DNA from: Candidatus Latescibacterota bacterium | Lineage (GTDB): Bacteria > Latescibacterota > UBA2968 > SICM01 | Assembly: GCA_965217865.1 (NCBI GenBank) | Contig: CBDCJO010000002.1 | Location: 256,001-320,000 of the forward strand | Direction of reading: 5' to 3' | DNA length: 64,000 nt | The notes under the pieces: generated by a model | The model's input: the letters and a program-made list of their open reading frames with translations, nothing else | Told to the model about the DNA's origin: nothing | The model's database searches: none | Made by a program: the position numbers and the translations under genes | Shown: positions 3 through 62,720 of the stretch, one piece after another | How positions within the stretch are numbered: the stretch's first letter is position 1 | Layout of the letters: each line of letters begins with the position of its first letter

Positions 3-506
3 CTCCAGCTCGAGGCACAAATCTCCCCTCTGCCACCGGTGGTGCTGGGAGGATTGCTGGTCGTTCCCAAGGGGCTCATCGATGAAATGAGTGGGCGTGA
101 ACCGGCGGGCACAAGAACGGCCGTGGATACGCAGGAATCGGCCGGCCGGGCGCGCAACATCATTATGGAGGTCGAGCGGAGTCTTGGATTTGACCCGACT
201 GACCGGGAGTTCGAGAAACTGGGGTACGACATCGAAAGCCGGGTGCCGGACACGGGCAAGCTTCGATTCATCGAGGTCAAGGGACGGGCCAGCGGCGCCT
301 CAACGATCACCGTCACGCGCAACGAGATTCTGTACTCCCTGAACAAGCCCGAGGACTTCATCCTCGGAATCGTGGAGTTCCAGGACGGCGGCCGGCATCA
401 GGTCCACTACGTTCGCGAACCCTTTCAGCGCGAGCCGGATTTCGGGGTGACGAGCGCCAACTACGATTTTACAGAGCTGCTTGCGCGAGCGGAAGAGCCG
501 TCATGA
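3..506 (+). CDS. C-terminus of SNF2-type helicase with DUF3883 (NOV_C-like PD-(D/E)xK nuclease) domain; runs off the window start
   Basis: Open frame from position 3; motif GYDIES...RFIEVKGR...TITVTRNE typical of DUF3883; lies directly upstream of DUF1156 methylase. Confidence 0.85.
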   Translation, partial: LQLEAQISPLPPVVLGGLLVVPKGLIDEMSGREPAGTRTAVDTQESAGRARNIIMEVERSLGFDPTDREFEKLGYDIESRVPDTGKLRFIEVKGRASGASTITVTRNEILYSLNKPEDFILGIVEFQDGGRHQVHYVREPFQREPDFGVTSANYDFTELLARAEEPS

Positions 507-531
507 AGGGGTCAGCAGAAGACAGAACGGC

Positions 532-5477: not shown

Positions 5478-5480
5478 CGT

Positions 5481-23000: not shown

Positions 23001-23683
23001 CCGTCGCACGGGAGTGGGAAATGTGGCTGAAGGGAGCTGAGCCCAATCTTTCCGTGACCTACGATTCAGCCTGCGCAAAGGATGACAGAACCGTGACCTT
23101 GATTACACCAGTCCATCTGCTAGCGCAACAAGCTGCCCACGCGGTGGCGGACGCAGACCAGGGACGCCCGTTGACCGGAATCGAGGTCTCAACCCCCAAT
23201 ATCACGCCGGGTGACTATCCATTTGCTGTCTACCAGTGGCAGTTCCACGGAATTCGCAACGACATCGAGTTCCAGCCGGTGACTACGCAGCCTGACCTAA
23301 CGGCCGAGTTTATTCGGCTCTTGCCGGGTGGCAGGGAATGCGCTCTATCCGGTGGTGGTCTCTCCCAACAGGACCGGGACAGTATCGAACAGCAGCATTA
23401 CCGGTTCTGGTCCGATGCCCGCGCCGAGCATGTTGAAGAAACCACTCGACTAGCCGATTTCCGGCGAGGAAGCCTTGAGACAAGTCACAAAGCCCGCATG
23501 GCCATCCTCGAATCTCAGCTTACCCAAGCGGCGAACGAACGCATCCGAATCATGAAGGCATCTCAACAAAAAAACGCCCAAGCCGACTACGAACGCCGGT
23601 CCAAGGAAATAGACGAGGCTACAAACAAGGCTGACATCACCGCCAAGCCCATCGCATGGGGAATCATCCGCGTGAGTACGTAG
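20039..23683 (+). pseudogene. Swt1-HEPN + SNF2/RapA-like helicase, split by the 92-bp MITE
   Basis: RNRWAH HEPN; LIADSVGVGKT, IVDEAH, LTATP in ORF 20039-21952; GCEGLD, YDLPWNP, QRIGRIDR in ORF 22025-23683; frames join when the MITE is removed. Confidence 0.92.
21915..22006. mobile_element. 92-bp MITE, copy 2, flanked by CTAG duplication (21911-21914 / 22007-22010)
   Basis: One substitution versus copy 1; removal gives gaa cta gaa tgg (ELEW) in frame. Confidence 0.92.
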
Positions 23684-23686
23684 ACC

Positions 23687-26600
23687 ATGTCAAGCGACTA
23701 CGAAGCGATCACTCGCGACAATATCCGTCGGCGCGGCGAGGAGTTCGACGATATCGGCAATCTTCTCGCCGAAAAACTGTACGGAGACCGTGCTCACTTC
23801 ATCTATGAGCTGCTGCAGAACGCGGAGGATGCCCTTGCCTTACGTTACCAGAAGGACCCTAGCGTCTCAGGCGAGGTTACGTTCCGGTTATGCAGCGACC
23901 ACCTAGAAGTGAGCCATTACGGGAAGCTCTTCGATGAAGATGACGTGAAAGGTATCTGCGATGTTCTTCGCGGCACCAAGAATGAGCGTCTGGACCAAAT
24001 CGGCACGTTCGGTATTGGGTTCAAGTCCGTTTATGCCTTCACCCGTTCGCCTGAAGTTCATTCCGGCGACGAGCATTTCGTCATCAGGCACTTCATCCGC
24101 CCTCAGGCTGTGGAGCCACGTCCCCTCCAAGACCCTTTACAAACCTTATTTTATTTTCCCTTCGACCATCCTGACTTTGGAGCACCCGCTGTTTTTGACC
24201 TCATACAGAGCAGGCTGAAGTCCCTCGGCCCCAGGTCGCTTCTCTTCCTGCATCACGTCAAAGAGCTTCAATGGATAGTTGAAGGAGGTGACAGCGGTTT
24301 CTGCATGCGCGACCACCAGCCGAGTGAGAACGGCGGTGCCCTAGTTCAAATCATTGGAGAGGGCACTAACCAGGACGACTCTGAGGAGGAATGGCTGGTT
24401 GTACGTCGGGATGTCAATCACCCGTCTCGTCTTGAGAAGCTCCCCGTCAAGGTGGCATACAGTATAGAAGCGGATAAAGATGGTAGATTCATTGCCGCTC
24501 TTCACCGTTCGCCACTGACTGCGTTCTTCCCAACCGCGAAAGAGACGGGCCTCGGTTTTCTGATACACGGCCCCTTCGCCTCCACACCTGCCCGTGACAA
24601 CATCGCAACTGACTCGGATTGGAACAACTTGCTCTTGAATGAGCTTGCAACGTTGGTTTCTGACAGCCTAAGCGTGTGCAGACGGCACGGGTTTCTCACG
24701 CCGCAGTTTCTAACCGTGCTCCCGATCGACCAGGAGAGCTTCCCTGTAGGGTCGCCATTTCGCCCCATCTATGAGTCTGTTCTCAAAGCTTTCAAGACTC
24801 AATCCCTAATACCACGAGTCGGGGATGGCCACATAGAGGCGGACCGAGCGGTCTTAGGCCGCTCGCAGGAACTACGGGACCTGCTGTCTCCCGCGCTCCT
24901 GGCGGAGCTGCTCGGCACTTCCGCTCAGAATAGGCGCTGGGTTGATGCCGCCGTCACAGAGAACCGTTTTTCCAAAGTCTGGAAGTACTTGCGCGACGAA
25001 TGCGATGTTCCTGTCCTGGACGGTGATGCGTTCGCACGGCAGATCACAGGCCACTTTTTGGAAGCCCGCGATGATAAATGGATGGTGCGCTTTTATGCTT
25101 TTCTGAACGGGCAAGAGGCCCTCTGGAGAGATCAAGGAGTATCTCGCTACGCTCTCGAAGGCCCCCTGCGCAAGAAGGCGATTATTCGATGCCAGGACGG
25201 ACAACATCGTACGCCTTTTGATAGCGCGGGGAATCCCTTTGTCTTTCTCCCAGTAAAATCAAAGGCCGACTACCATGTCGTGCACAGATCCATCTATGCG
25301 AATGAAGAGGCAGCGGAGTTCATGCACCGGCTCGGGTTGGTCCCACCCGACATCTGCACCCGCGTTCTCAATGAAATTATCCCGCTGTACCAGGATGACT
25401 CGGAAATCGAGAACGAGGCCCACGAAGAGCATCTCTCAGTAATCGCCACGGCCATGGACCTGGAGGACTCCCCGCGCTATACCGCGATGTTGTCGGAGCT
25501 GAAAACGACTACTTGGGCTCTGGCCACCAACGCAGGAACTGGCGACCAATACTACGAAGCACCCACAAAACTGTTCTTCCCGTCGTCTGAGCTACAAACC
25601 TTCTTTAAACTTAACGAGGACGTGTCGTTCCTGGCCGAAGAGGAAAAGCAAATCGACTGGCAGAAACTCGGCGTACGCAGAGATCCAGTCATTCACTGTC
25701 GGGGGCTCCGTACGAAGCGTAATTCCTTCGTGTCCCTATATTCCTCTTACGGCTGGCACCAGCGCGGTTACGACGGCTTCGACCCGGAAACAGCTGTTGG
25801 CGGTCTCGACTATGCTCTCACCAACATCACGCACCCCAGGGCAGCATACATTTGGAATGATCTGTTACCTCCCATCATGCGATTCCTCCATGGCCGCTAC
25901 CAGCGGGCAACACACCAGAACTACGACAATGCAACCACCCATGAAAAAGATTCCGTCGTCTGCAAGATGCTGAAGAGCCATGCCTGGATTCCGGTACGAA
26001 GTGGCGAGTTCAAGAAACCTGCCGAGTGCACACTTGCCGACTTGGCCGGCGAATTGAAACGGAATGAAGATCTGGCAGAGGTTCTTGGCGTCCATCCCGA
26101 TCCTGCGAAGGTGGCCGGGGAGAGGCCCGAAAGTGAACAGAACCTTGTTGCCAAGGCAGGATTCTCCCCTGAGGTTGCCACCCTCCTCGTCAACAACAAA
26201 GCGGTTCTAACGCCGGAACTTATCAACGAGATGCTGGCCAGCTTGGCAAGTCCGCCCCCGTTTCCCGAGCGGCCCGTTACCGACAAAGAGCGCCGAGTTG
26301 ATCGGGTCTGTGAACGCGTGAAGAAGGCGGCCCCCCCCAAGGCTTGCGACAAACGAAAGCGCTCCATTCGTACTCCCAAACTCGAAATCCCGGCAGACGT
26401 TTGGCTTCGCGAGATGTACACGAACCAAGAGGGTACGACTATTTGCCAAATGTGCCGCAAGGCAATGCCCTTCAAACTTCCCTGGACGGGAGAGTATTAC
26501 TTTGAAGCCGTTCAGATAGCGGACAATTTTCCTATCGAGGACCATTGTCTGTACTTGGCTTTGTGCCCGCTGTGTGCAGCCAGGTACAAGGTATTGGTGA

Positions 26601-26764
26601 AGCGAGGCGAGCATTATCTCAAGGAGTTCATTTGGGCGATAAAGGTGGCGAGGGAGCGGGTTGTTTCAGTAGGGAAGGACGGCAGTTCGTGTACGGTACG
26701 TTTCGTTGAATCCCATCTTCTTGACGCGAAGACGGCCTGTCAGAATGCCTATCCTGATGACTAG
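23687..26764 (+). CDS. Sacsin-like GHKL ATPase with C-terminal Zn-binding HNH-like domain
   Basis: ELLQNAEDA and IGTFGIGFKSVY GHKL motifs, FLIHGPF...R; C-terminal CQMC...LALCPLC; starts 3 nt after helicase stop. Confidence 0.85.
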   Translation: MSSDYEAITRDNIRRRGEEFDDIGNLLAEKLYGDRAHFIYELLQNAEDALALRYQKDPSVSGEVTFRLCSDHLEVSHYGKLFDEDDVKGICDVLRGTKNERLDQIGTFGIGFKSVYAFTRSPEVHSGDEHFVIRHFIRPQAVEPRPLQDPLQTLFYFPFDHPDFGAPAVFDLIQSRLKSLGPRSLLFLHHVKELQWIVEGGDSGFCMRDHQPSENGGALVQIIGEGTNQDDSEEEWLVVRRDVNHPSRLEKLPVKVAYSIEADKDGRFIAALHRSPLTAFFPTAKETGLGFLIHGPFASTPARDNIATDSDWNNLLLNELATLVSDSLSVCRRHGFLTPQFLTVLPIDQESFPVGSPFRPIYESVLKAFKTQSLIPRVGDGHIEADRAVLGRSQELRDLLSPALLAELLGTSAQNRRWVDAAVTENRFSKVWKYLRDECDVPVLDGDAFARQITGHFLEARDDKWMVRFYAFLNGQEALWRDQGVSRYALEGPLRKKAIIRCQDGQHRTPFDSAGNPFVFLPVKSKADYHVVHRSIYANEEAAEFMHRLGLVPPDICTRVLNEIIPLYQDDSEIENEAHEEHLSVIATAMDLEDSPRYTAMLSELKTTTWALATNAGTGDQYYEAPTKLFFPSSELQTFFKLNEDVSFLAEEEKQIDWQKLGVRRDPVIHCRGLRTKRNSFVSLYSSYGWHQRGYDGFDPETAVGGLDYALTNITHPRAAYIWNDLLPPIMRFLHGRYQRATHQNYDNATTHEKDSVVCKMLKSHAWIPVRSGEFKKPAECTLADLAGELKRNEDLAEVLGVHPDPAKVAGERPESEQNLVAKAGFSPEVATLLVNNKAVLTPELINEMLASLASPPPFPERPVTDKERRVDRVCERVKKAAPPKACDKRKRSIRTPKLEIPADVWLREMYTNQEGTTICQMCRKAMPFKLPWTGEYYFEAVQIADNFPIEDHCLYLALCPLCAARYKVLVKRGEHYLKEFIWAIKVARERVVSVGKDGSSCTVRFVESHLLDAKTACQNAYPDD

Positions 26765-30561: not shown

Positions 30562-30794
30562 TGTACGTCTTCAGCATGAATGAGACATTTGGGGTGTCCA
30601 GCTCGCCTTGCGATCGACAATCAGATTCACGAAGGAACATTTTTCGAGTTATTCCTGCGTGAACTGCTTACTCGTTTTAGGATGCAGAGATTTTGGAGAG
30701 CTACATTCCAGAACTTCGTTGGTAGCAATAGTGGGGTATCCACCTTTGGAAACGAGTCAATACCAACAACCCTTGTATGTCAAAGAGGAATCCC

Positions 30795-31889
30795 ATGACC
30801 ATGCTCGACGGAATCATCATTGAAGGCTTCAAGAGCATAGCGTGCGCCTCGGTAAATTTGCGTCCGCTCAATGTGCTGATAGGAGCCAACGGATCAGGCA
30901 AATCGAATTTCATTGGCGCGTTCTCGTTCCTGCACACCCTCAGTCAGGGACAGTTGCAGAGCTATGTTGGACAAGCGGGCGGGGCTGATAGAATTCTGCA
31001 CTTCGGGTCGAAAGTGACCTTGAAATTGGAAATACAAGTCTCCTTGGACCGGAACCGCGCCGGCTATTCAGTTGCACTGAGTCGAGACAAATCCGACGGC
31101 CTTTACCTTACCATGTGTGGATATCATCCACCAAGCGACGATGGAGACGAACAGGTCCATCTATCAGAAAGGGAAGGCTACCTTCTGCCACCGGAGCACA
31201 TTCGCGAGCATATTGGAAATTGGCAGCTATACCACTTTCACGACACCAGTTCGACATCGCCGATGAAGAAGACGGCTGACGTGAATGACAATCGCTATCT
31301 GCGGCCCGACGGTTCGAATCTCGCGGCGTTCCTGTACTACCTGCGGGAAAAGCATGATCGTTCTTATCGCCTGATACGACGCACTGTGCAGCTCGTGGCG
31401 CCGTTTTTCGAGGATTTCCTGCTTGAGCCACAAGCGTTGAACGAAGACAAGATCCGCCTTGAGTGGCGGCACCGGGGAACGGACGCTTATTTCGACGCAT
31501 CATCCTTTTCGGACGGCTCCCTGCGGTTCGTTGCCCTCACGACGTTGCTGCTTCAACCGGTGTCGCTCCGGCCTTCACTCATCCTTTTGGATGAACCGGA
31601 GCTCGGACTGCACCCTTACGGGATTGCGATGTTGGCTTCCCTTCTCAAACAAGCATCGGCCGAGACGCAGATTGCGCTTGCAACCCAGTCGCCGTTGCTG
31701 TTGGATCATTTCCAACCGGGTGATGTGCTCGTGGCTGACCGTGTGTGTGGAGCGACCGAGGTCCGCAGACTGGACGAACAAGATCTGAAGAATTGGTTGA
31801 AAGATTACAGCCTTGGTCAACTCTGGGAAAAGAATGAACTCAATGGCCGCCCGGCGGTAGAAAAGGGAAGCGATTGGGATGGCTCGTAA
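30795..31889 (+). CDS. AAA_21/ABC-type ATPase
   Basis: LIGANGSGKSN, FSDGSLR signature, LLDEPELGLHP, ATQSP; GAGGA RBS before ATG 30795. Confidence 0.9.
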   Translation: MTMLDGIIIEGFKSIACASVNLRPLNVLIGANGSGKSNFIGAFSFLHTLSQGQLQSYVGQAGGADRILHFGSKVTLKLEIQVSLDRNRAGYSVALSRDKSDGLYLTMCGYHPPSDDGDEQVHLSEREGYLLPPEHIREHIGNWQLYHFHDTSSTSPMKKTADVNDNRYLRPDGSNLAAFLYYLREKHDRSYRLIRRTVQLVAPFFEDFLLEPQALNEDKIRLEWRHRGTDAYFDASSFSDGSLRFVALTTLLLQPVSLRPSLILLDEPELGLHPYGIAMLASLLKQASAETQIALATQSPLLLDHFQPGDVLVADRVCGATEVRRLDEQDLKNWLKDYSLGQLWEKNELNGRPAVEKGSDWDGS

Positions 31890-42933: not shown

Positions 42934-44069
42934 TTCTGTTTCGTTCCGACGGGTATCGGACGGAAACGTCAAAGTCGATCGTTCGTCGTTAATTTCAGCA
43001 GGGGCTAGGAAGTGCCAGTTTTTGATCTTTTTTCATATCGCAAACGGCGGGCCGAGGGCGAAAGACCGGATGTATTCGTCTACGACACGCTTCCCCAGCC
43101 ACTCCGAGTGCAAATCGTCCGAATTATGCAAGATGCTATCGGCCGATTTCATGTCTATAATTCCCCGTTCGATGGCGCGATCGAGAACAATAAAGGCTGG
43201 CAAATTATCCACGATACGGTTGCCCGGGAGCATGGTGTATTCCGGTTAGCGGATGAAATAAAACTAGATGCTCGTTGCGCGTATTTTCTTCTCAACTGTG
43301 ATTCGGTGAAACGAGTGCTTGATCTTGTTGAATTCAGCTTTCGCTACGTCGATAAGATTGCCCGGATATTCAACGAACATGATCGCCAGAGAAAAGGGAT
43401 AGAGGTGACAGCAAGCGATGCAATTGCTGAGCTCAACGAGCGTTTCCGACGTGCTGGCGTGGGATATCAATTTGAGGAGGGAAAGATCTTTCGTGTCGAC
43501 TCAGAATTGATTCACTCCGAAGTGGTGCGGCCCGCGCTTCGACATCTCCACCAAAAGGGCTTTGAGGGGCCACGTGATGAATTCATCCGCGCGCACAAGC
43601 ATTACCGTGCTGGCGAAATGCAAGATGCAATCACGGATGCCAACAACGCGTTCGAAAGCACATTGAAGGCGATTTGCGATCAGAAAGGTTGGCGGTATCC
43701 AGAGGGTGCCCGTGCTTCGGATCTTCTCAAGCTAGTGCGCGCGAAGGATCTTTTGCCAGACTATCTGGACCGGTCGTTCGACCAGCTGATTGCTACACTT
43801 AAGTCGGGTCTTCCGGAAGTGAGGAACGAGGAGGGTGCTCATGGCCAAGGAGCAACACCGCGGAAGACACCCAATTATGTGGCGGCCTACGCGCTCCATT
43901 TGGCGGCCGCCAACATACTGTTTCTCGCTGAAGCGCATAAAGCGATGAAATAAATAAGGCATACCGTGATGTTTCGCTTCATCAGACGGCTGTTCGGGAA
44001 CGATGTCACCACGGCCGATAGCCGGGGCGGCGACGACACGGAGTTGGTCGTTCATCGATCGTCCCGCGC
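42934..44069 (+). repeat. 1.14-kb direct repeat, copy 1 (copy 2 at 61569-62720)
   Basis: Near-identical sequence; copy 2 is 16 bp longer. Confidence 0.95.
43012..43953 (+). CDS. Abortive-infection family protein (AbiJ-like N-terminus + Abi_C/HEPN; STM4504/CBY_0614-like), copy 1
   Basis: DVFVYD.LP..LRVQI, AFESTLKAI, VRNEEGAHGQG. Confidence 0.85.
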   Translation: MPVFDLFSYRKRRAEGERPDVFVYDTLPQPLRVQIVRIMQDAIGRFHVYNSPFDGAIENNKGWQIIHDTVAREHGVFRLADEIKLDARCAYFLLNCDSVKRVLDLVEFSFRYVDKIARIFNEHDRQRKGIEVTASDAIAELNERFRRAGVGYQFEEGKIFRVDSELIHSEVVRPALRHLHQKGFEGPRDEFIRAHKHYRAGEMQDAITDANNAFESTLKAICDQKGWRYPEGARASDLLKLVRAKDLLPDYLDRSFDQLIATLKSGLPEVRNEEGAHGQGATPRKTPNYVAAYALHLAAANILFLAEAHKAMK

Positions 44070-46405: not shown

Positions 46406-46537
46406 CCTTGGAACAAAATTCTCAGCTTAGCAAGAGACACACATTCATCAATCAGGACAGGACGATCTCGGTGAGGGACGTGAGATTGAAATCACTCAAC
46501 CCTTTTGGAGACAGAGATCGAATCTAAGAGGAATACC

Positions 46538-49129
46538 ATGGAGCAACCGAAGAACAAGAAAAAGCGTGAGGTTGAGAACTACATGCATACCGGCAAGGAG
46601 CGTCTAAACAACCCGCCCGTTGGCTTGGTCACGCCGGAGACGGACAAGGATGCGGGCAAGAAGACCTACGTTTATGATCCACACCTAGATCCGCAACTCG
46701 TCTGGGCCGGGAAGGCCGAGTACACCTCGTTCGATGTCCCCACCGTATCCCTGCATGTCCACGAGCGCATTGACCCGTGCGTCATCGTGCAGGTGGTGAG
46801 AAAGCGCAACGGAGCGGGGACGCAGATATCCATGTTCGCGGCTCCGGAAGAAAACCCGCCGATCCGCCAAGCCATTGAGTTCTACAAGCACAGGCACAAT
46901 TGGAAGAACCGCCTGATCGCGGGCGACAGCCTGCTGGTGATGAACAGCCTGCTTGAGAAGGAGGGCCTCGGTGGGCAGGTGCAGATGGTCTATATCGACC
47001 CACCCTACGGCATACGCTACGGCTCGAATTTCCAGCCCTTCGTCAATAAGCGCGACGTGACCGACGGCAGGGACGAGGACCTGACCCAGGAGCCGGAGAC
47101 GATCCGCGCCTTCCGCGATACATGGGAGCTCGGCATCCATTCCTACTTGGCCTATCTGCGGGATCGCTTGCTATTAGCGCGGGAGCTTCTTCACGAAAGT
47201 GGAAGCTGTTTCGTGCAGATCGGAGATGAAAACGTCCATCGTGTAGGCTTAGTGATGGACGATATATTCGGCGCGGAGAATCGGTTGGCGACCATCTCGT
47301 TCGCCACGACGAGTGGCAGTTCTACGTCTCACTTGCCACAGGTAGCAGATTATTTGCTGTGGTACGCCAAGGACAAAGATCAAGTGAAGTATAGGCAATT
47401 GTATGAACCGCTCACGCGGCGCGAGGTGATCGAGTCCTTCAGTTGGCACGTGATGATAGAATTACCCGACGGGCAATGCCGCAAGCCGACGCCCGAAGAA
47501 AGTTTCGACCCAGACAAGTATCTACCGAATGGCGCGCGCATCTACCGGCGTACAGGTCTGGATTCGCAAGGTGTTTCCATGACCGGCCGTTCAGAACCCT
47601 ATGAGTGGAACGGCCGCGTCTTTCGTTGCGGCAATGCTCGGCACTGGGCGATCTCCAGAGAAGGCATGGACCGACTCTCCGAACTGAACCGGTTGGAGGC
47701 GCTGGAGGGACAGGCCTCATTGATGTGGAAAAAATACGAGGACGAGGTGCCGGGTCGAAGAATTAACAACATTTGGCCGGCACAGATGTATCCGAGTGAC
47801 AAGCGCTATGTGGTCCAGACCTCCGCAAAGGCGATTCAGCGCTGTATCCTGATGACCACGGACCCAGGCGATCTGGTATTTGATCCCACTTGCGGGTCAG
47901 GCACCACGGCCCATGTCAGCGAGCAGTGGGGCCGAAGGTGGATCACTTGCGACACCTCCCGCGTGGCGACAGCCTTGGCCAAGCAACGCCTCATGACGGC
48001 GAATTTCGACTATTACGAACTGGCTCATCCGGATGAAGGGGTTGGGGCCGGTTTTCGTTACCACAGCGTCGCCACCGTATCGGCGAAGACACTCGGCTAC
48101 CGCGAGCCCCCCGCCGAAATCATGCTTTACGACCGTCCCAGGATCGACCGGGGCAAGGCTCGTGTCACCGGTCCTTTTACGGTCGAAGCGGTGCCCGCGC
48201 CTGCGGTTAAGCCTCTGGACGAAATTGAAGAGTCCGCAGCGCCCCCTGCGGACGCCTCCGTGTCGCGTGCGGGGCAAACCTTGCGTCAGGCTGATTGGCG
48301 GGACGAACTGTTCAAAACGGGCATCCGCGGCAAGGCCGGGCAGCGTATCTCATTCGCTCGTCTGGAGCCGTTGCCTGGAACCCGGTGGTTGCATGCCGAG
48401 GGCGAGACCCGCCCTGACGAATCCATGGCTGAGGCGTCCCGCGAACCCGCGCACGATCCCGAGCGCCTCGTGGCCTCTTTCGGGCCGGACCACGCGCCGA
48501 TGGAACAGCGGCAAGTGGCTCTCGCCATCGAGGAGGCACAAAGCCTCGTCCCCAAGCCGAAGGTCATCGTCTTTGCGGCTTTCCAGTTCGACCCCGAGGC
48601 GTCCAAGGACATCGACGAGACCAATTGGCCCGGCGTCACTTTGTTGAAGGCGCAGATGAACGCCGATTTGCTGACCGACGATCTCAAGAAGGAGCGCGCG
48701 AACAACGAGAGCTTCTGGCTGATCGGCCAGCCGGACGTGGAGGCCGAGCGAATCACGGAAGGTGGTGACAAAGGCAAGCTCCGCGTCTCGGTCCGGGGTT
48801 TTGACTATTACAACACCAAGACCGGCAACGTGGAATCGGGCGGTAGGGACAGGATAGCCATGTGGATGCTCGACACCGACTATGACGGGCGCAGCCTGTT
48901 TCCCCGCCAAGTGTTCTTTCCCATGGTCGGCGACAAGGATGGCTGGGCCAAGCTCGCACACAATCTCAAAGCTGAGATCGACACGGACCTGATCGAAGCC
49001 TATCGCGGCGTCGTCTCCCTGCCATTTGAGCTTGGCAAGCACGGACGAGCGGCGGTCAAGATCGTGGACGATCGCGGCATCGAGAGCCTGAAAGTGGTCG
49101 AGGTGGATGGCGCATGCGACAGGAGTTGA
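46538..49129 (+). CDS. mod: Type III restriction-modification DNA methyltransferase (Mod)
   Basis: NRLIAGDSL, YIDPPYGI, FDPTCGSGTT, WMLDTDY, AVKIVDDRG; GAGG RBS. Confidence 0.92.
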   Translation: MEQPKNKKKREVENYMHTGKERLNNPPVGLVTPETDKDAGKKTYVYDPHLDPQLVWAGKAEYTSFDVPTVSLHVHERIDPCVIVQVVRKRNGAGTQISMFAAPEENPPIRQAIEFYKHRHNWKNRLIAGDSLLVMNSLLEKEGLGGQVQMVYIDPPYGIRYGSNFQPFVNKRDVTDGRDEDLTQEPETIRAFRDTWELGIHSYLAYLRDRLLLARELLHESGSCFVQIGDENVHRVGLVMDDIFGAENRLATISFATTSGSSTSHLPQVADYLLWYAKDKDQVKYRQLYEPLTRREVIESFSWHVMIELPDGQCRKPTPEESFDPDKYLPNGARIYRRTGLDSQGVSMTGRSEPYEWNGRVFRCGNARHWAISREGMDRLSELNRLEALEGQASLMWKKYEDEVPGRRINNIWPAQMYPSDKRYVVQTSAKAIQRCILMTTDPGDLVFDPTCGSGTTAHVSEQWGRRWITCDTSRVATALAKQRLMTANFDYYELAHPDEGVGAGFRYHSVATVSAKTLGYREPPAEIMLYDRPRIDRGKARVTGPFTVEAVPAPAVKPLDEIEESAAPPADASVSRAGQTLRQADWRDELFKTGIRGKAGQRISFARLEPLPGTRWLHAEGETRPDESMAEASREPAHDPERLVASFGPDHAPMEQRQVALAIEEAQSLVPKPKVIVFAAFQFDPEASKDIDETNWPGVTLLKAQMNADLLTDDLKKERANNESFWLIGQPDVEAERITEGGDKGKLRVSVRGFDYYNTKTGNVESGGRDRIAMWMLDTDYDGRSLFPRQVFFPMVGDKDGWAKLAHNLKAEIDTDLIEAYRGVVSLPFELGKHGRAAVKIVDDRGIESLKVVEVDGACDRS

Positions 49130-49443
49130 GCCGGATGCTTGGCCGGGAGGTGGATCTGATCGAACCCAGCGCCATCGAACGGAACCGCAACTACATTCGC
49201 CGCGTCGCCTGCACCAGAACGCTATTCTCAAAGCCATCGAGATCATCGGCGAGGCCACGGCCCGTATCGGCTGGGACAGACAGATGCGCCCCGGTATTTC
49301 ATGGCCGAAATCATCGGAATGCGGAATCGTCTCGTACATGCCCATTTCGAGGTGGACCTGAAGCGTGTATGGAAGACCGCACAACAGAATATCCCCCGTC
49401 TCATCTCCCTCATCGAACGCTGGTACCGCCGGAGGCTGTATGA
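49114..49443 (+). pseudogene. Remnant of MNT-HEPN (DUF86/HepT) toxin-antitoxin pair
   Basis: LGREVDL..., AIEIIGEA, IIGMRNRLVHAHFEVD in shifting frames. Confidence 0.75.
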
Positions 49444-49764
49444 TGGACCGGACAACTATTGACCGCCTGTCTTCGACCTTATTCCTCTGTCAACCGGATT
49501 CGGCCGGGGGATCACGAAGCGACTGGTTGGGGCACGAACTCAGAGTTCGATAGCCATCGGTTTTTCTTCTGCCAACTGGGGGCCGCCGAGACGCTGATCT
49601 GGCTCGTCGAGGCGCCAGCGGCCGATAAAGTTGGCGTGGAGTTTCCGTCCGATGGCGGAGCGTTCCAGCGTTTATGCACGAAGATGGCGACCGGCTCGGT
49701 GAAGACCGTCGTCATGGCCATGTTCATCGCATGGCGCACCTGGAAGGGCTGCTGGCAGGGTTGA
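49440..49764 (+). pseudogene. Remnant of type III Res subunit
   Basis: RFFFCQLGAAETLIWL and RLCTKMATGSVKTVVMAMFIAW (degenerate Walker A). Confidence 0.75.
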
Positions 49765-50479: not shown

Positions 50480-52801
50480 ATGAACAACAAAACACGACTC
50501 CTCGGCCCGCTCTTGACCGATCCTGACAAGCTCAAGAGACAAGCCGCCAAGTGTCGGGATGTCTTTGGCCAAGTTTCCGTAGCAAAATCGGATGTAGAAG
50601 CCTATCTCAAAGATGGCTGGGAAGTCGACAAGGAGCTTAAGCACAAGACGCATCTCAAACGAAGACGTGCGGCTGACGAGTTGCTGGAGAATCGCGTCTG
50701 GCTGCTTCTGTTTCTCTTGGGCTACCATGAACTCAATGATGGACGCAAGTTTTCTATCCTTGTCGAGCGTAAAGGTGCAGATCCAATCCGAAAGCAAATC
50801 GACGTCTTCGCAAAGGACGAGGAAACGGTGATTGTGGCTGAATGCAAAGCATCAGAAAAGTTGAAATGTAGGAGCTTGCAGAAGGATATTAAGGAACTCG
50901 CAAACCTGAAGGGCCCTCTTGCGAATGCCATAAAGAAACACTACGGTTCTAGTTTCAAGCCGAAAATCATATGGCTCTTTGTGACTCAGAACATAATCTG
51001 GTCCAAGCTGGACAAAGAACGTGCTGCAGGGGAAAAAATCCGCACGATCACAGAGAAAGAGCTTCCCTACTACAGCCAAATCGCTAATCATCTGCGCATG
51101 GCTGCCCGGTTCCAGTTCTTGGCAGAGTTTCTGAAGGATCAGAAGATCCCAGAACTCGCGAATCGGAAAGTCCCAGCGATCCGCGGCAAGCTCGGCGGTC
51201 ATACCTTCCATTGTTTTGTCACAACGCCAAAGGAGTTATTAAAAATTTCTTTTATTAACCATCGGTCCCTGAATGACCCAGACGGCGCACCTACTTATCA
51301 GCGACTCGTCACCCGTTTCCGAATGAAACAGATCAAACTGTTCTTGCTCGACGGGGGATTCTTTCCAACGAACATCCTCATTAACTTCACGAGACAGGTC
51401 CGCTTCGAGACTGTTTCCAAAGATGACAAGGCAGACGTTGCGTACGGGTACCTCTACATGCCCGATCGATACAGATCTGCGTGGGTCATCGACGGACAGC
51501 ACCGCCTCTATGGATTCGCCCTACTCAATGAGAAGCATCTCAGCCAAAACATCGTCGTCATTGCTTTTCATAGACTGAGCAAGGAACATGAAGCGAATCT
51601 CTTTGTGACAATCAACCATGAACAGAAATCTGTTCCAAAGAGTTTGTTGGACGACTTGGAAGGTGAACTGAAATGGGACTCCGATGTCCCCTCAGAACGC
51701 GTGGGAGCGATCAGCGCCCGTTTGATTGGCGGCCTCAATGCAGATATAAACGGGCCCCTCTATGAACGCGTAACACAGCAAGGCATAATAGCAACCGAGA
51801 AAACCTGCCTCACGGTCCCCGCGCTCAAAGATGGATTGCGGCGGTCTGGGCTCGTCGGCAAGTCCATACTGAAACGTAAGGAATACGAGCCCGGGGCGTT
51901 GTGTGGAACAACAGATTCAGAAACTCTTGACCGGGCTAGAGCAGCGTTGAATCAGTATTTCTCCCTCATACGATCCAGTTCTCCGACGCAATGGGAAATG
52001 GGGACAAGCGGGTTCTTTTGCTCCAACGTCGCGCTCCAAGCATATCTGCAGCTCTTGGCTGCCCTCGTGGCTTACATGGAGACGAACAAAGGCCTGAACG
52101 CACAAGAGTTGACACCGGAAGAGATCCTCTCGAATGTAGAGGAGTACTTGGACCCAATCCTCAAATGGCTATCTGATGCAACGCCCGTTGACATAGAAAA
52201 AACATTTAAGGTCCAGTTTGGGTCTGGTGGTCCTCGAGAGTACTTCTTTAGATTGTGCCGAATCATCAAGGCGGAGTTTTCTGATTTCGAGCCAGAAGGC
52301 ATGGGCGCGTGGGAACAAGAACAGTCGACAGAGCGCATCGAAATGGCAGATCGAAAGTTGAAGGAACTCAACATCCTTGTACAAAAGTCTATATTTGGCC
52401 AGTTCAAGGCGAAATATGGCACCGAAAAAAACGCATATTGGGAGAAAGGGGTTACCGACAGGAAGATTAAAATGCGTGCATATGAGAAGTCCCAAGATGA
52501 CGACATGGAAAAACGACTTCCTCTTGAGAATTACCTCAACTTCATTGAGTATAAGAATATCGTGGACAATAAGACTCATTGGCGCCTTTTCAAGCCCGTC
52601 TTCGACATTCCGGAACCTGGAGAAAAGGGATACTCCAAGAACGTGCGCTGGATGGAGAGGGTCAACAAACTACGGAGGATTCAAGCGCATCCTACTGAAA
52701 GCCGACGTTATAGGCTTGATGACTTTGAGTATATCGACTATATATACGAGCAATTCACCACCAAGCGGCAGGAGGCCGTTTCCACCGGGGAATTGGAGTG
52801 A
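50480..52801 (+). CDS. DGQHR/DndB-domain protein with N-terminal PD-(D/E)xK nuclease and C-terminal Swt1-like HEPN domain
   Basis: QIDVF...VAECK; YQR, FPTNI, VIDGQHRL, LFVTIN.EQK; LRRIQAHP. Confidence 0.88.
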   Translation: MNNKTRLLGPLLTDPDKLKRQAAKCRDVFGQVSVAKSDVEAYLKDGWEVDKELKHKTHLKRRRAADELLENRVWLLLFLLGYHELNDGRKFSILVERKGADPIRKQIDVFAKDEETVIVAECKASEKLKCRSLQKDIKELANLKGPLANAIKKHYGSSFKPKIIWLFVTQNIIWSKLDKERAAGEKIRTITEKELPYYSQIANHLRMAARFQFLAEFLKDQKIPELANRKVPAIRGKLGGHTFHCFVTTPKELLKISFINHRSLNDPDGAPTYQRLVTRFRMKQIKLFLLDGGFFPTNILINFTRQVRFETVSKDDKADVAYGYLYMPDRYRSAWVIDGQHRLYGFALLNEKHLSQNIVVIAFHRLSKEHEANLFVTINHEQKSVPKSLLDDLEGELKWDSDVPSERVGAISARLIGGLNADINGPLYERVTQQGIIATEKTCLTVPALKDGLRRSGLVGKSILKRKEYEPGALCGTTDSETLDRARAALNQYFSLIRSSSPTQWEMGTSGFFCSNVALQAYLQLLAALVAYMETNKGLNAQELTPEEILSNVEEYLDPILKWLSDATPVDIEKTFKVQFGSGGPREYFFRLCRIIKAEFSDFEPEGMGAWEQEQSTERIEMADRKLKELNILVQKSIFGQFKAKYGTEKNAYWEKGVTDRKIKMRAYEKSQDDDMEKRLPLENYLNFIEYKNIVDNKTHWRLFKPVFDIPEPGEKGYSKNVRWMERVNKLRRIQAHPTESRRYRLDDFEYIDYIYEQFTTKRQEAVSTGELE

Positions 52802-53637
52802 ACACATTCTCAGAGACATCTGTTAAGCCGTTTCTAAAGTGGGCTGGCGGTAAAAGATGGTTTGTTGCCAATCACTCCCGTATCCTTACCGCGTCATATC
52901 GGCGGTACTTTGAGCCCTTCGTTGGGAGCGGAGCCGTCTTTTTCCACCTCCGACCGCTGAGAGCTGTATTGGCAGATAGCAATGCAGCGTTGATCAACAC
53001 CTATCAGGCTATCCGTAGCGACTGGCGAAGTGTCTGGAAGAAACTGCGCAACCATCAGAGACAACATTGTGTTGCCTATTATTACCACGTACGTAGTTCT
53101 CAACCGATATCGCCAGCGGGTATGGCTGCGCGTTTTATCTACTTGAATAGGACCTGTTTCAACGGGCTATACCGAGTCAATCGGAATGGTGAATTCAACG
53201 TTCCAAAGGGTACTAAGAAAACCGTCGTCTTTCCGGATGACAACTTCCGTGCTGTGGCTATGGCGTTGCGCAACTGCGAACTTCGTGTGGCAGATTTTGA
53301 GGAAGTACTCGACAGGGCACAGAACGGAGACTTCGTTTACATAGATCCACCGTACACGGTGCGCCATAACAACAATAATTTCTTGAGGTACAACGAGAGT
53401 ATCTTTCGTTGGGAGGATCAGGTCCGGCTGGCTAAAGCCATGTATAGAGCCAATCGACGTGGCGCACTGATAGTCATGAGTAATGCCAACGCCAGTTGCA
53501 TTCGAGAACTCTATCGCGAGTTTGGTGTCATGTTGGAAGTATCACGGTGCAGTGTACTGGCAGCGGATTCGACGAAGCGCAGGAATACTACAGAGTTGAT
53601 CGTGACAAACATGAAGGAAGTGGGAATTGAGAGATAG
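52798..53637 (+). CDS. dam: Dam-family (D12 class) adenine methyltransferase
   Basis: PFLKWAGGKR, EPFVGSGAV, LNRTCFNGLYRVN..GEFNVP, YIDPPY; GTGA overlap with upstream stop. Confidence 0.92.
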   Translation: MNTFSETSVKPFLKWAGGKRWFVANHSRILTASYRRYFEPFVGSGAVFFHLRPLRAVLADSNAALINTYQAIRSDWRSVWKKLRNHQRQHCVAYYYHVRSSQPISPAGMAARFIYLNRTCFNGLYRVNRNGEFNVPKGTKKTVVFPDDNFRAVAMALRNCELRVADFEEVLDRAQNGDFVYIDPPYTVRHNNNNFLRYNESIFRWEDQVRLAKAMYRANRRGALIVMSNANASCIRELYREFGVMLEVSRCSVLAADSTKRRNTTELIVTNMKEVGIER

Positions 53638-56190: not shown

Positions 56191-56709
56191 ATGGAATGGA
56201 AAAGTGTTTTTCGGAACCCGCTTTGCGCCTTGTCGGTGCTGGCTATGTTCGCAGGTTTACTGGTCGATTTTCAGGGGGCGGCGTCTAAAATGGCACGAGC
56301 TATTCCCCTAATAGAAGCCTTACTGCCATTGATAGCCCTTGGGGGGGTTACGTTCTTTGGGTTGTGGTCAATATGGGCGGTTCCATCATTCTTCTGGGCG
56401 CGTCGCCCTGCTGCCAAGTTTGGAACAAATTACTATTTCATAGTGAAATGCCGCAATGCCGTTGAAGGTCGCATTATCGGCATATTGGACAACAATTCTC
56501 ACTTGTATGCCGGAATGACGGAACTTTCCAATACGTTGAGTCGATTCCGAATCCAATGTCCCAATATAAATCCTGACGATAAATATTACGCAGTAGTATG
56601 GTTCAACTTTCTTGCACAATTAGCGCCATTGGCACGGCACGATGATTTGTACAATGCACGCAAACTTGGATTACGGGGAAATGAATCACATGACCGAACC
56701 CAACTTTAA
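56191..56709 (+). CDS. Hypothetical membrane protein (IS1595 passenger)
   Basis: 172-aa ORF, two N-terminal hydrophobic helices, overlaps methylase start. Confidence 0.7.
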   Translation: MEWKSVFRNPLCALSVLAMFAGLLVDFQGAASKMARAIPLIEALLPLIALGGVTFFGLWSIWAVPSFFWARRPAAKFGTNYYFIVKCRNAVEGRIIGILDNNSHLYAGMTELSNTLSRFRIQCPNINPDDKYYAVVWFNFLAQLAPLARHDDLYNARKLGLRGNESHDRTQL

Positions 56710-59641
56710 GAACCGCACGATATGGACGGGCGACAACCTGGACATCATGCGTGGCATGAACTCCGAAAGCGTTGATCTGATCTACCTTGATCCGCCCTTC
56801 AACTCCAATCGCACCTACTCCGCGCCCGTAGGAAGCAAGGCGGCGGGGGCTGCCTTCAAGGATTCATGGTCGTTATCCGATTTGGATGTTGCCTGGATGG
56901 GGATCATTGCCGACAAACATCCGGGCATGTATAAGGTTCTGGAAGCGTCTGGCGTCGCTCACGGAAAAGGGATGCAATCCTATCTTTGCATGATGGGTGT
57001 CCGAATCCTTGAAATGCATCGTCTCTTGAAGCCTGCGGGGAGCATCTATCTTCATTGCGATCCCACGGCCAGTCACTACCTCAAGCTGCTTATGGACGCG
57101 GTATTCGGGCAGGAAAATTTTCGGAGTGAGATCACGTGGCGCCGTACCAATGCGAAAGGATTGGCGTTCAAGAGCTACCCGAACAACGCTGACTTTCTGT
57201 TGTACTACAGCAAAGCCGAATCTTTTACGTGGAATCGTCCATTTCGCTCCCATGATCCGACCTATTTAAAAAAATTTTACCGACATGTTGATCCAAAAAC
57301 CGGACGGCGCTATCTACTCGACAATCTGGCGAACCCGAACTCGGATCGCCCTAATTTGACATACGAGTTTCTCGGAGTAACCAGAGTTTGGCGTTGGACA
57401 CGAAAACGAATGCAGAAAGCCTACGAACAGGGTCTCGTTGTGCAGCAACGTCCGGGTGCAGTTCCAAGACTCAAAAGGTATTTGGATGAGATGAAAGGCG
57501 CCCCGGTTGATACGATTTGGGACGATGTAAAGCCAGTACAGGCTCAATCCGGGGAGCGCATCGGCTATCCCACCCAGAAGCCCCTTGTCCTCCTGAACAG
57601 GATCATCCAGGCAAGCAGCGACATCAACGATATGGTCATGGACCCATTCTGCGGATGCGCAACGACCTGCGTGTCGGCGGACAAGCTGAACCGCCAATGG
57701 GTCGGAATAGACATCTCGCATAAAGCTTCCGAGCTTGTCAACATGAGACTTCAATCGGAATTGGGAGACCTTTATCATTCCCGCCTGGTTGCGGTCCGAA
57801 CCGACGTTGTATCTATTCTGAGATAACAAGAGAAAAGCAGATAAAGGTCCAAGCAAGATTCAGGCAGCCTTGTGGATGGTCTGGGATGTTCTTTGCCGAT
57901 TGATTTCTATGCGGCGCTGCCGAGCCTCCTCCTTTCGACCTTGTCGGTGGTGAAGAATCTTTTGATGCTGGCCTTTATGCCTCTGAAGAGGCGTGACATA
58001 CTGTATTGCCCCGTGATAGCGTTCGGCGTTGTAGCTGTGAATGAAGGAATCAATCAGGCCTTCCAGTTGATGGAATGTGAAGATGTCCTGGAAGCGCAGC
58101 CAGTCGTATTTGAATGTCCGGAAAAAGGCTTCGATCCAGGCGTTGTCCGTGGGTGTTTGATATCGGGCAAACAGCTGCGAGATGCCCAGGTCCTTGAAGA
58201 ATTGGGCCATCGATTTGGCCTTCATCTGAGATCCGTGATCTGAGAGGGCTGTCAAGCTTATGGGCCCAGTGTCCAGGTCCAGCAGTCCTTCGTTGGCAAG
58301 GGCTTGATCCCAGGCCTGTTTGACCTGCTCCACGGTCGCGTTGAAGGAGAGCTTCCATCCTACGATCTTCCTGGAATACACGTCGAGAATGGCGGTAAAA
58401 TACAGGAACAAACCGAAAAATGGGATGTAGGTCAGGTCCCAGCTCCAGACCTGATTAGGACCTTCAGGTTTGACCTGGGGCTTGCTCTGCTTGACCGGCG
58501 TCCTCACCTGTTTCCTGCGTGCCAGACGTTCTTTCCTGGCCTGTCGGTAGAAGCTGGAGGCCGAGGCCTGCACTACCCCCTTCTCTGAGGCTACCACCGC
58601 CAGCTGATGGGGAGGCAGATCGGCATAGGTCTCATCCCTTAAGAGGGCCGGGATTTGCTCTTTCTCCTCCCTCAGCAATCCGTGTGGGGCCTCATCAGGG
58701 GCGGGCCCGGGCTTCCCATCCAAAAGCGGGTCCGACACCCCATCCAGCTTCTCTTCTCGATCTCGCCGGCTCCAGGCACAATACCGCTGGAGGGGAAGCT
58801 GTAGGATCTCGCAAGAACGGGTGAGTTTCACCCCTTTCTCCTTGGCCCGATGGACCATTAAGAGGATCTCGCGTTTGACCTCAGCTTGCACCCGGTGGCC
58901 CTTGATCGGGCCTGTCAGATCCCATTCACACTTTTTTTTAGCAGGGAAAGTTCCACAGATTGCTCAATGATCGTTTGCTCCAGGCGTGCCCGCTCTTTGC
59001 GCAGCTGCTCCACCTCCTCAGCCGATACCATCGGCTTGCGGCTCCGGCGACCCTTGAACTCCTTGAGGGCCCCGGACTTGACCGACTCACGAATACGCTT
59101 TAGATCCGAGGAATGAATGCCCCATTTCCGCAGCACCTGTGCAATGGGAACATCTCCCCGGCTGGCTTCAAGGAAAATCTCATACTTCTGTTCCGGGGAC
59201 AAGCTCCTGCGCTTCTTGACCGGGTCACTGTTTGAGGACAGTTGCTCCATCTTTACTCCTCCTGTGAGGTCAGGGATATCCCAAAATATGTATCCCTTCT
59301 CAACCCTACAGGCAACCAGGATCTTGCTTCGACCTTGCCCCCGTTTTTTCGGGCGATCTCAGACAAAAGATAACGTTCCAAAGCGCACTGACTTGGGCGA
59401 ACTTCCCGATTACCGAACGTACAAGCATATCCTGTTCGGCAAGCAGGAAGGAGTATGCGGTGGTTGTCGTTCAACGTTCCAGTTCAGGAACTTCACGGTG
59501 GATCATATCGTACCCAAAATCAAAGGAGGAACCAACCACCAAGACAACCTGCAACTGCTCTGCGGAGCCTGTAACAGCTTGAAAGGTGATAGGCCGCAAG
59601 CCTATCTGGTGGCGAGATTGAAAGGCTTGGCCACACCTTAG
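56690..59641 (+). pseudogene. N6/N4 DNA methyltransferase-HNH nuclease fusion (IS1595 passenger), interrupted by IS3-type element
   Basis: DLIYLDPPF, YPTQKP, DPFCGCATT; after the IS, CGGC...DHIVP...N...CGACN; joins as RTDVPKRTD. Confidence 0.9.
57808..59372 (-). mobile_element. IS3-family-like element (orfA 58915-59250, orfB 57860-58891) with ACGT target duplication
   Basis: PNQVWSWDLTY, SDHGSQ, DNAWIEAFF; imperfect IRs sharing tctgagat; ACGT at 57804-57807 and 59373-59376. Confidence 0.92.
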
Positions 59642-61568: not shown

Positions 61569-62720
61569 TTCTGTTTCGTTCCGACGGGTATCGGACGGAA
61601 ACGTCAAAGTCGATCGTTCGTCGTTAATTTCAGCAGGGGCTAGGAAGTGCCAGTTTTTGATCTTTTTTCATATCGCAAACGGCGGGCCGAAGGCGAAAGA
61701 CCGGATGTATTCGTCTACGACACGCTTCCCGAGCCACTCCGAGTGCAAATCGTCCAAATCATGCAAGATGCTATCGGCCGATTTCATGTCTATAATTCCC
61801 TGTTCGATAATTCCCCGTTCGATGGCGCGATCGAGAACAATGTAGGCTGGCAATTTATCCACGATACGGTTGCCCGGGAGCATGGTGTATTCCGGTTAGC
61901 GGATGAAATAAAACTAGATGCTCGTTGCGCGTATTTTCTTCTCAACTGTGATTCGGTGAAACGAGTGCTTGATCTTGTTGAATTCAGCTTTCGCTACGTC
62001 GATAAGATTGCCCGGATATTCAACGAACATGATCGCCAGAGAAAAGGGATAGAGGTGACAGCAAGCGATGCAATTGCTGAGCTCAACGAGCGTTTCCGAC
62101 GTGCTGGCGTGGGATATCAATTTGAGGAGGGAAATATCTTTCGTGTCGACTCAGAATTGATTCACTCCGAAGTGGTGCGGCCCGCGCTTCGACATCTCCA
62201 CCAAAAGGGCTTTGAGGGGCCACGTGATGAATTCATCCGCGCGCACAAGCATTACCGTGCTGGCGAAATGCAAGATGCAATCACGGATGCCAACAACGCG
62301 TTCGAAAGCACATTGAAGGCGATTTGCGATCAGAAAGGTTGGCGGTATCCAGAGGGTGCCCGTGCTTCGGATCTTCTCAAGCTAGTGCGCGCGAAGGATC
62401 TTTTGCCAGACTATCTGGACCGGTCGTTCGACCAGCTGATTGCTACACTTAAGTCGGGTCTTCCGGAAGTGAGGAACGAGGAGGGTGCTCATGGCCAAGG
62501 AGCAACACCGCGGAAGACACCCAATTATGTGGCGGCCTACGCGCTCCATTTGGCGGCCGCCAACATACTGTTTCTCGCTGAAGCGCATAAAGCGATGAAA
62601 TAAATAAGGCATACCGTGATGTTTCGCTTCATCAGACGGCTGTTCGGGAACGATGTCACCACGGCCGATAGCCGGGGCGGCGGACGACACGGGGTTGGTC
62701 GTTCATCGATCGTCCCGCGC
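61569..62720 (+). repeat. 1.15-kb direct repeat, copy 2
   Basis: Matches 42934-44069. Confidence 0.95.
61647..62603 (+). CDS. Abortive-infection family protein, copy 2 (5 aa longer)
   Basis: Near-identical to 43012-43953; 15-bp imperfect tandem repeat at 61792-61821. Confidence 0.85.
   Translation: MPVFDLFSYRKRRAEGERPDVFVYDTLPEPLRVQIVQIMQDAIGRFHVYNSLFDNSPFDGAIENNVGWQFIHDTVAREHGVFRLADEIKLDARCAYFLLNCDSVKRVLDLVEFSFRYVDKIARIFNEHDRQRKGIEVTASDAIAELNERFRRAGVGYQFEEGNIFRVDSELIHSEVVRPALRHLHQKGFEGPRDEFIRAHKHYRAGEMQDAITDANNAFESTLKAICDQKGWRYPEGARASDLLKLVRAKDLLPDYLDRSFDQLIATLKSGLPEVRNEEGAHGQGATPRKTPNYVAAYALHLAAANILFLAEAHKAMK

Follow-up and report, generated by a model that had tools for sequence, protein, structure and literature searches.

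A nuclease-DGQHR-HEPN protein paired with a Dam-family methylase: a candidate methylation-gated defence module

The subject of this analysis is a pair of overlapping genes in a 64,000-nucleotide stretch of DNA (the window) from a Candidatus Latescibacterota bacterium (assembly GCA_965217865.1, contig CBDCJO010000002.1, positions 256,001 to 320,000). The first open reading frame (ORF), P0001, encodes a 773-amino acid (aa) protein, referred to below as the effector. The second has a GTG start and encodes a 279-aa adenine methylase of the Dam family. The stop codon of the one and the start codon of the other share the letters GTGA, an arrangement from which the two genes are predicted to be translationally coupled (coordinates are given in Table 1). 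The original prediction, made from the sequence of the window, had described a PD-(D/E)xK motif, a DndB/DGQHR core and a C-terminal RxxxxH in the effector, an overlap with an intact Dam-family gene, and an absence of dndCDE and DpnII/MboI-type genes. Profiles, motifs and structural alignments confirm this architecture, the methylase keeps its DPPY motif, and no dndCDE or DpnII/MboI-type gene was found among the neighbouring ORFs of the window that were scanned. The 6.4-Mb host genome has one copy of the effector, whose partner was the sole Dam homolog found by tblastn. The pair is thus real, intact and, as described below, widespread, and it is apparently uncharacterised.

The effector matches the Pfam DndB profile (PF14072, residues 231-390, E 7e-12) and the DGQHR profile TIGR03187 (residues 233-529, E 1e-39), both above cut-off, and its AF2 model (pLDDT 94, pTM 0.87) resolves four parts, to which the following alignments refer. 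Residues 5-221 align with the effector half of nucleases of the Can2/Card1/Cdn1/VC1899 set (among the structures 7bdv, 1xmx, 9u49 and 6xl1; Z 8.8-9.4, root-mean-square deviation (rmsd) 3.1-6.6, 116-168 residues aligned), and within them residues 65-198 align with AF1548 (1y88; Z 11.9, rmsd 2.1, 113 aligned). This part has the Can2/Card1 fold (Z ~9), but the effector lacks the CARF domain and CRISPR link of those proteins and carries a ParB-like domain at the sensor position: residues 234-384 align with the CTP domains of ParB and Noc (Z 7.5-8.0, rmsd 2.2-3.0, ~95 aligned). Residues 400-612 are nearly all helical by DSSP and are a candidate DNA-binding or dimer region. Finally, residues 613-769 align with the HEPN domain of sacsin at a middling Z of 6.2 (rmsd 3.3, 104 aligned) and with Csm6 at Z 5.6. 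No Pfam HEPN match is present in the effector itself; one homolog has a weak match to HEPN_Swt1 (E 8e-4), and in an Atlas cluster 21% of the members carry this domain. We assign a HEPN domain on the basis of these matches together with the motif R732-x4-H737. Like that motif, the nuclease residues D108 and E121-C-K123 and the DGQHR pocket are intact in the window copy. A sequence search with the effector matched no solved structure; it has no restriction endonuclease profile match in Pfam, PADLOC or NCBIfam and no HNH match in Pfam, its C-terminus being helical with the RxxxxH. PADLOC returned a DpdB profile as its only match, with no named system beyond this domain. Although residues ~230-540 match the DndB and DpdB profiles, the scores lie far below the equivalog cut-offs (NF041060, 72 vs 300; TIGR04172, 63 vs 450), no dnd or dpd operon surrounds the pair and, unlike DndB and DpdB, the effector is fused to two nuclease domains.

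The effector family is large, with 1707 matches among 7998 scored candidates, identities down to about 25% and several deep clades in a FastTree phylogeny. There are 502 representatives (50% identity) at E <1e-30, and many of the 150 listed are full-length. Loci were sampled from the clade of the query (the best 80 of 484 confirmed genome stretches), from a distant clade (the best 80 of 192 metagenome stretches) and from viral contigs, plasmids and a class sample of 401 genomes, 4 of which were positive, the centre genome included. Two further clades contributed few loci each, so that two clades dominate the counts, which also contain near-identical copies. On this basis Dam is present at 141 of 175 loci. 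It accompanies the effector at 67/80 loci of the genome set, mostly downstream and overlapping, with one opposite-strand case beside a truncated gene; the remainder comprises four loci with a long D12 methylase, four with an MT-A70 methylase and five that end at a contig edge, and an adenine methylase adjoins the effector in all 75 loci that do not so end. In the metagenome set (63/80) Dam lies mostly upstream. The 17 loci without it include two full-length effectors with a long D12 methylase, three with a radical SAM and GHKL ATPase pair and three with no methylase in the available flank, the rest being short or edge contigs.

In a Mantel test on 103 dereplicated pairs, for which kin are not independent, effector identity is correlated with Dam identity (rho 0.62; p 0.002, the permutation floor). 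The sequences suggest that the two genes, which occur together in many bacterial groups, are co-inherited and form a horizontally moving module. The near-universal methylase neighbour and this co-inheritance support the claim that the two genes make up a dedicated module in which a methylase is coupled to a protein with two effector domains, and such a module is likely an anti-phage or anti-plasmid system. No full-length effector homolog was found in annotated phages, and a blastn search with one gammaproteobacterial gene, a weak test, gave no match in E. coli. Since a search of 40 related genomes found no full-length homolog (two have weak matches to other DGQHR proteins), we infer that the host gained the pair recently by horizontal transfer.

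The partner in the window is a member of the Dam family (TIGR00571, 243 bits against a cut-off of 115; PF02086 match), with DpnM as its nearest solved structure (E 2e-56). Its beta-hairpin, the element with which Dam reads GATC, aligns to that of EcoDam, and [LIV]xR in this recognition hairpin is kept by 131/134 Dam partners. The MT-A70 substitutes share 68-73% identity with an MT-A70 protein that adjoins a BglII/BstYI-family endonuclease; no such endonuclease was found at the loci of the substitutes themselves, of which two break off shortly downstream of the gene. Two BglII/BstYI-family systems use RG(m6A)TCY, according to passages that do not state their methylases to be MT-A70 (PMC10287943, PMC10734518; m6A, N6-methyladenine). 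Based on the conservation of the hairpin and the kinship of the MT-A70 substitutes with GATC-core restriction-modification (R-M) systems, the mark at almost every locus is probably centred on GATC.

Comparison of 131 diverse effector proteins sheds light on which parts of the molecule matter. Y273, Q274, R275, F295, D338-R342 (the DGQHR motif), F375 and N379 are invariant in all 131. The nuclease residues are kept in 127 (D108), 115 (E121) and 99 (K123) of these proteins, and the HEPN residues in 110 (R732) and 106 (H737). Both motifs are present in 88; 17 have lost the nuclease acid only, 25 the HEPN motif only and 1 both, compared with ~3.6 expected if the losses were independent, a weak trend. 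For 125 Dam-adjacent full-length proteins the corresponding numbers are 90, 11, 17 and 7. The last seven (L184, L188-L193) constitute a single clade in which both nuclease motifs are gone and the DGQHR pocket is intact. At these loci, and also at L179 and L182, Dam and the effector lie within a DrmA/DrmB-like (DISARM-like) helicase operon. Because the pocket is invariant while the nuclease or the HEPN site is often lost, the pattern is consistent with an essential switch whose outputs can be exchanged and argues against a plain restriction enzyme. To judge function from conservation, either output seems to suffice, since each has been lost in many lineages and the switch never.

These data bear on the possibility that the pair is an ordinary Type II (IIS-like) R-M system, in which the PD-(D/E)xK domain would cut unmethylated GATC and the HEPN domain would serve as a PrrC-like backup when restriction is blocked, possibly by way of contact with the methylase. 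Paired, overlapping genes are typical of R-M, the catalytic domains of FokI and Nt.BspD6I align with the effector nuclease in the AF2 model (Z 6.8-8.2), and HEPN fusions to R-M nucleases have been proposed as backups (in passages of PMC3710099). A DpnM-like methylase coupled to a PD-(D/E)xK gene also recalls the DpnII system (DpnM with R.DpnII), but the protein described here does not belong to the DpnII/MboI family, has NTP-binding (nucleoside triphosphate-binding) and HEPN domains, and has a nuclease site that is dispensable in many lineages. Thus 18 of the 125 Dam-adjacent proteins lack the acid at D108 or E121 while the ORF and the pocket persist; when nuclease state is defined more loosely, so that K-to-R is scored too, the tree shows 17 changes of it. 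The invariant part is the ParB pocket, not the nuclease. Nine loci do carry a broken effector beside an intact Dam, as R-M would lead one to expect, and three (L108, L154, L238) an intact effector beside a broken Dam; this 9:3 proportion equals the gene-length ratio, and we therefore rejected an asymmetry of the R-M type. An ordinary R-M system is, in our judgment, distinctly unlikely, and the pair resembles a sensor that is gated by methylation and has interchangeable effectors.

What might the switch sense? The answer that we favour, with confidence a little short of even, is that the effector is an NTP switch like DndI and SspE, reading the methylation of GATC on the DNA itself and firing on DNA that lacks it. 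DndI is a ParB-like DUF262 NTPase that reads a DNA mark by means of a P23/Y25/Q26 patch (PMC11662687), and in both DndI and SspE the sensing of the mark is coupled to NTP hydrolysis, release of self DNA and nuclease activity (PMC11662687, PMC13251355). DndB is a dimer on a DNA palindrome and acts as a repressor (PMC4507180), and a DndB-like protein binds ATP and GTP (bioRxiv 2025.10.10.680097); these statements come from passages of the papers. We rank a DNA-level reader first because binding to NTPs and to DNA is established for characterised relatives of the core, and a mark read on DNA is favoured by the retention of the GATC hairpin, by the GATC-core substitute partner and by the fact that the characterised DUF262/DGQHR-fold proteins bind NTPs and read DNA marks. 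The DrmA/DrmB-like operon around the clade that has lost both sites fits a DNA-level role. P271/Y273/Q274 of the effector resembles the DndI patch, as a likeness of motifs that was not aligned by a tool. An apparent covariation of P271 with partner type (proline with m6A methylases and not with radical SAM) found no support: with relatedness considered there are four independent pairs, of which two go the same way (p 0.5).

The likeness to DndI (IscS-DndBCDE-DndI) and SspE (SspABCD-SspE) extends to the ParB-like NTPase with its DGQ[QH]R and P-x-Y-Q motifs, the nuclease fusion and the accompanying modification module (passages of PMC11662687, PMC13251355). The differences are equally clear. The predicted mark is m6A placed by Dam in the one case and phosphorothioate in the other, the core is of the DndB/DGQHR type as opposed to DUF262, and the nuclease is an N-terminal PD-(D/E)xK domain with an added HEPN domain in place of a C-terminal HNH (DUF1524). 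Neither dndCDE nor sspBCD was found among the window neighbours scanned or the recurring neighbour clusters listed, the rest of the host genome not having been searched for them.

Under this DNA-reading model Dam, to judge from its family and its conserved recognition hairpin, would methylate GATC in the host. The DGQHR and helical core, probably a dimer like DndB, would bind DNA together with ATP or GTP, by analogy with DndB, DndI and SspE. On methylated self DNA the NTP would be hydrolysed and the DNA released, as by DndI on phosphorothioated DNA. On unmethylated incoming DNA the core would remain engaged and license a non-specific Can2/Card1-like nuclease and the HEPN RNase, with damage to the invader, arrest of the cell, or both, as the predicted outcome. 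This polarity, in which a missing mark is the trigger, is preferred because variants that possess only HEPN need an infection-specific trigger.

Several observations weigh against the DNA-reading model. The analysis demonstrated no DNA-binding or specificity element in the effector. Methylases have been swapped between effectors that are 70-78% identical (L057 vs L058/L059; L068 vs L069), and a search of these pairs for a swapped specificity region found none with consistent excess divergence. Two loci pair with the long D12 methylase, which we take to be CATG-type, and six with a radical SAM gene; at three, the available flank contains no methylase. If a missing mark were the trigger, the three loci with a broken Dam should be lethal, unless they reflect assembly errors or a second Dam in the host. 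The YQR motif is shared throughout the DGQHR/DUF262 family and so is not specific evidence. Lastly, we found no avoidance of GATC: its observed/expected ratio (o/e) is a neutral 0.98 in the host genome and 0.91 in effector genes, the same as in the flanks. As a separate observation, CATG is scarcer in the effector genes of 103 loci (o/e 0.68) than in their flanks (0.94), for which shared ancestry or codon use may be the cause.

Some of the same observations would be expected if the effector sensed degraded self DNA in the manner of Metis. Breakdown of m6A-marked host DNA by a phage would yield m6dAMP or m6dATP (the N6-methylated forms of dAMP and dATP), which would bind in the DGQHR pocket and cause the nuclease and HEPN domains to abort infection. 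We consider this possible, if on the whole doubtful. The pocket is invariant and the effectors are interchangeable, the nuclease half is like the ligand-activated Can2/Card1, and three methylase families have been swapped with the sensor unchanged. No other Dam above cut-off was found in the eight methylase-swap genomes, all of them metagenome-assembled. The three solo copies and the three intact effectors beside a broken Dam point the same way, and frequent 4-bp marks would maximise such a signal. As in Metis and PUA-Cal-HAD systems, a dependence on adenine methylation and a sensor-plus-effector logic would be expected, and a type III Metis with its own methylase has been predicted (a passage of bioRxiv 2025.11.05.686725). 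However, m6dAMP is sensed in the known cases by PUA domains, which have a HAD partner (passages of bioRxiv 2025.11.05.686725 and 2026.01.15.699771). The effector has no PUA/ASCH match in Pfam and no PUA domain was detected in the AF2 model, and the system is without a calcineurin-like or membrane effector. The MisB HAD phosphatase is absent from the window unit, and no MisB-like HAD neighbour recurs among the neighbour clusters listed. Characterised ParB-fold pockets bind the triphosphates ATP, GTP and CTP (a passage of bioRxiv 2025.10.10.680097), nearly every partner is GATC-core in spite of an effector divergence of 25-30%, and the clade that has lost both effector sites keeps Dam. A more specific proposal, which we regard as slightly more doubtful still, is that methylated deoxynucleotides have a second receptor, independent of PUA, in the DGQHR/ParB fold. 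The system would then be self-contained, methylating its own host, detecting the m6dA nucleotides that phages set free and firing a Card1-like nuclease and a HEPN RNase, with the radical SAM/GHKL sister clades sensing a different modification. The original prediction had suggested a dual effector gated by methylation. Its methylase-coupled design with two effector domains stands; the methylated nucleotide proposed as the signal was not shown, and the evidence favours a mark read on DNA.

The invariance of the pocket even where both nuclease motifs are lost (seven loci, one clade) also raises the question of whether the work is done by the DGQHR domain itself, either as an NTP-depleting toxin or as a DndB-like regulator of the methylase operon, with the nuclease and HEPN domains as accessories. 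Precedents exist, as passages describe DndB as a repressor (PMC4507180) and propose that it depletes nucleotides (PMC10853773), but at least one nuclease motif is kept in 130 of the 131 diverse homologs and a pure regulator would not need any. We consider this explanation improbable.

The original prediction had also called the pair a strong candidate for an undescribed system. This holds in that our literature search, outside of which lay subscription journals and preprint supplements, found no paper describing the Dam pairing or any test of it, and PADLOC names no system. It must be qualified in that the domain fusions were noted computationally in 2013. Table 1 of Anantharaman 2013 (PMC3710099) contains a Swt1-like HEPN domain, mostly active, fused to ParB in Saro_3948, and fusions of DGQHR/DUF262 to PD-(D/E)xK and HEPN were regarded as possible cell-death modules of modification systems (Makarova 2013); the passages of these two papers give no Dam pairing and no experiment. 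A full-length homolog on N. aromaticivorans pNL1, SARO_RS17535 (32% identity over 97%), is probably the Saro_3948 entry and a member of the same family as the effector. New relative to what is known is a candidate modification-gated defence built on a ParB-like NTPase, with m6A as the predicted mark and with two outputs.

The pair sits inside an insertion sequence-rich defence island. Defence genes occupy three other segments of the window (Table 1), among them a DUF1156 methylase, HerA, a HEPN_Swt1-DUF499 ATPase, an AAA_21 ATPase, and a Swt1-HEPN-SNF2 helicase split over two ORFs and followed by a sacsin-type GHKL protein. A Type III Mod-like methylase (PADLOC MTase_III, E 1e-154) is followed only by a short ORF, which we take to be a remnant of Res. 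Two near-identical AbiJ-NTD4/DUF7014 (STM4504-family) genes are also present. An rve-transposase element lies between an N6_N4 methylase ORF and another ORF downstream that has an HNH-like motif; these two ORFs are possibly one interrupted methylase-HNH gene.

Three further gene arrangements were noted in the survey. The first is an operon of a small DGQHR protein, a B12-type radical SAM protein and a GHKL ATPase, located on plasmids of alphaproteobacteria (the radical SAM protein has full-length matches in 12 records), a candidate modification or defence module of unknown type. Large effectors directly adjoin the radical SAM and GHKL genes in L225, L230 and L232. The radical SAM/GHKL pair is not established as a true substitute for the methylase, as it also occurs without the effector: 7 of the 12 plasmid records have no full-length effector match, and viral contigs carry the pair without any DGQHR gene, twice after a HerA-like gene. 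The second is a three-gene module consisting of a ~500-aa DGQHR protein, a ~420-aa helical protein without a Pfam match that is HEPN-like by eye, and a long D12 methylase of the same family as that which replaces Dam in L058/L059/L073/L075. In the third, a ~190-aa predicted membrane protein without a Pfam match and a stand-alone ~380-aa DGQHR protein recurrently adjoin the pair.

Table 1. Features of the gene pair, of its surroundings in the window and of related modules (positions are those of the window, or of the named locus)
Feature	Position	Strand	Basis
Nuclease-DGQHR-HEPN sensor/effector gene P0001	50480..52801	+	ORF call, Pfam/NCBIfam profiles, AF2 model
PD-(D/E)xK nuclease with small N-terminal beta domain, residues 5-221	50492..51142	+	Structural alignment
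Nuclease catalytic residues D108, E121, K123	50801, 50840, 50846	+	Residue conservation among homologs
DGQHR/DndB ParB-like nucleotide-binding domain, residues 231-390	51170..51649	+	PF14072, TIGR03187, ParB/Noc alignment
P271-T-Y273-Q274-R275 motif	51290-51304	+	
DGQHR motif	51491-51505	+	
Helical domain, residues 400-612, continuing DndB/DpdB-like core	51677..52315	+	DSSP of AF2 model; DpdB profile spans 230-538
Swt1-like HEPN domain, residues 613-769, R732-x4-H737 (H at 52688-52690)	52316..52786	+	Structural alignment, motif
Dam/DpnM-family m6A methyltransferase, 279 aa, predicted GATC-specific	52798..53637	+	TIGR00571, PF02086, DpnM/EcoDam alignment
GTGA overlap of stop and start	52798..52801	+	Sequence; comparable overlaps at many homologous loci
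Other defence genes	481-8822, 20039-26764, 30777-31889		
Type III Mod-like methylase and short ORF	46505-49764		
AbiJ-NTD4/DUF7014 gene	43012-43953		Profile scan
AbiJ-NTD4/DUF7014 gene	61647-62603		Sequence
N6_N4 methylase and HNH-like ORFs	56642-59641		
Small DGQHR/radical SAM/GHKL loci	L105 8347-12487; L106 8368-12591; L234 3983-8212; also L225, L230, L232, L088		
Three-gene DGQHR/helical/D12 module	L233 1212-5137; L139-L141; L236 (first two genes only)		
Membrane protein and small DGQHR neighbours	L012, L019, L020, L055, L058, L072; L069 (small DGQHR alone)		

Since the mark predicted for the host is the same as E. coli's own, a comparison of dam+ and dam- strains would separate the models directly, and the pair is a widespread, two-gene and easily cloned system. 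If the DNA-reading model is true, the reading of marks by ParB-like NTPases would be extended from phosphorothioate to ordinary m6A; if the effector instead senses nucleotides, its fold would be new among receptors for methylated nucleotides. Either outcome bears on the role of the DGQHR/DndB domains, which recur beside unrelated DNA-modification enzymes.

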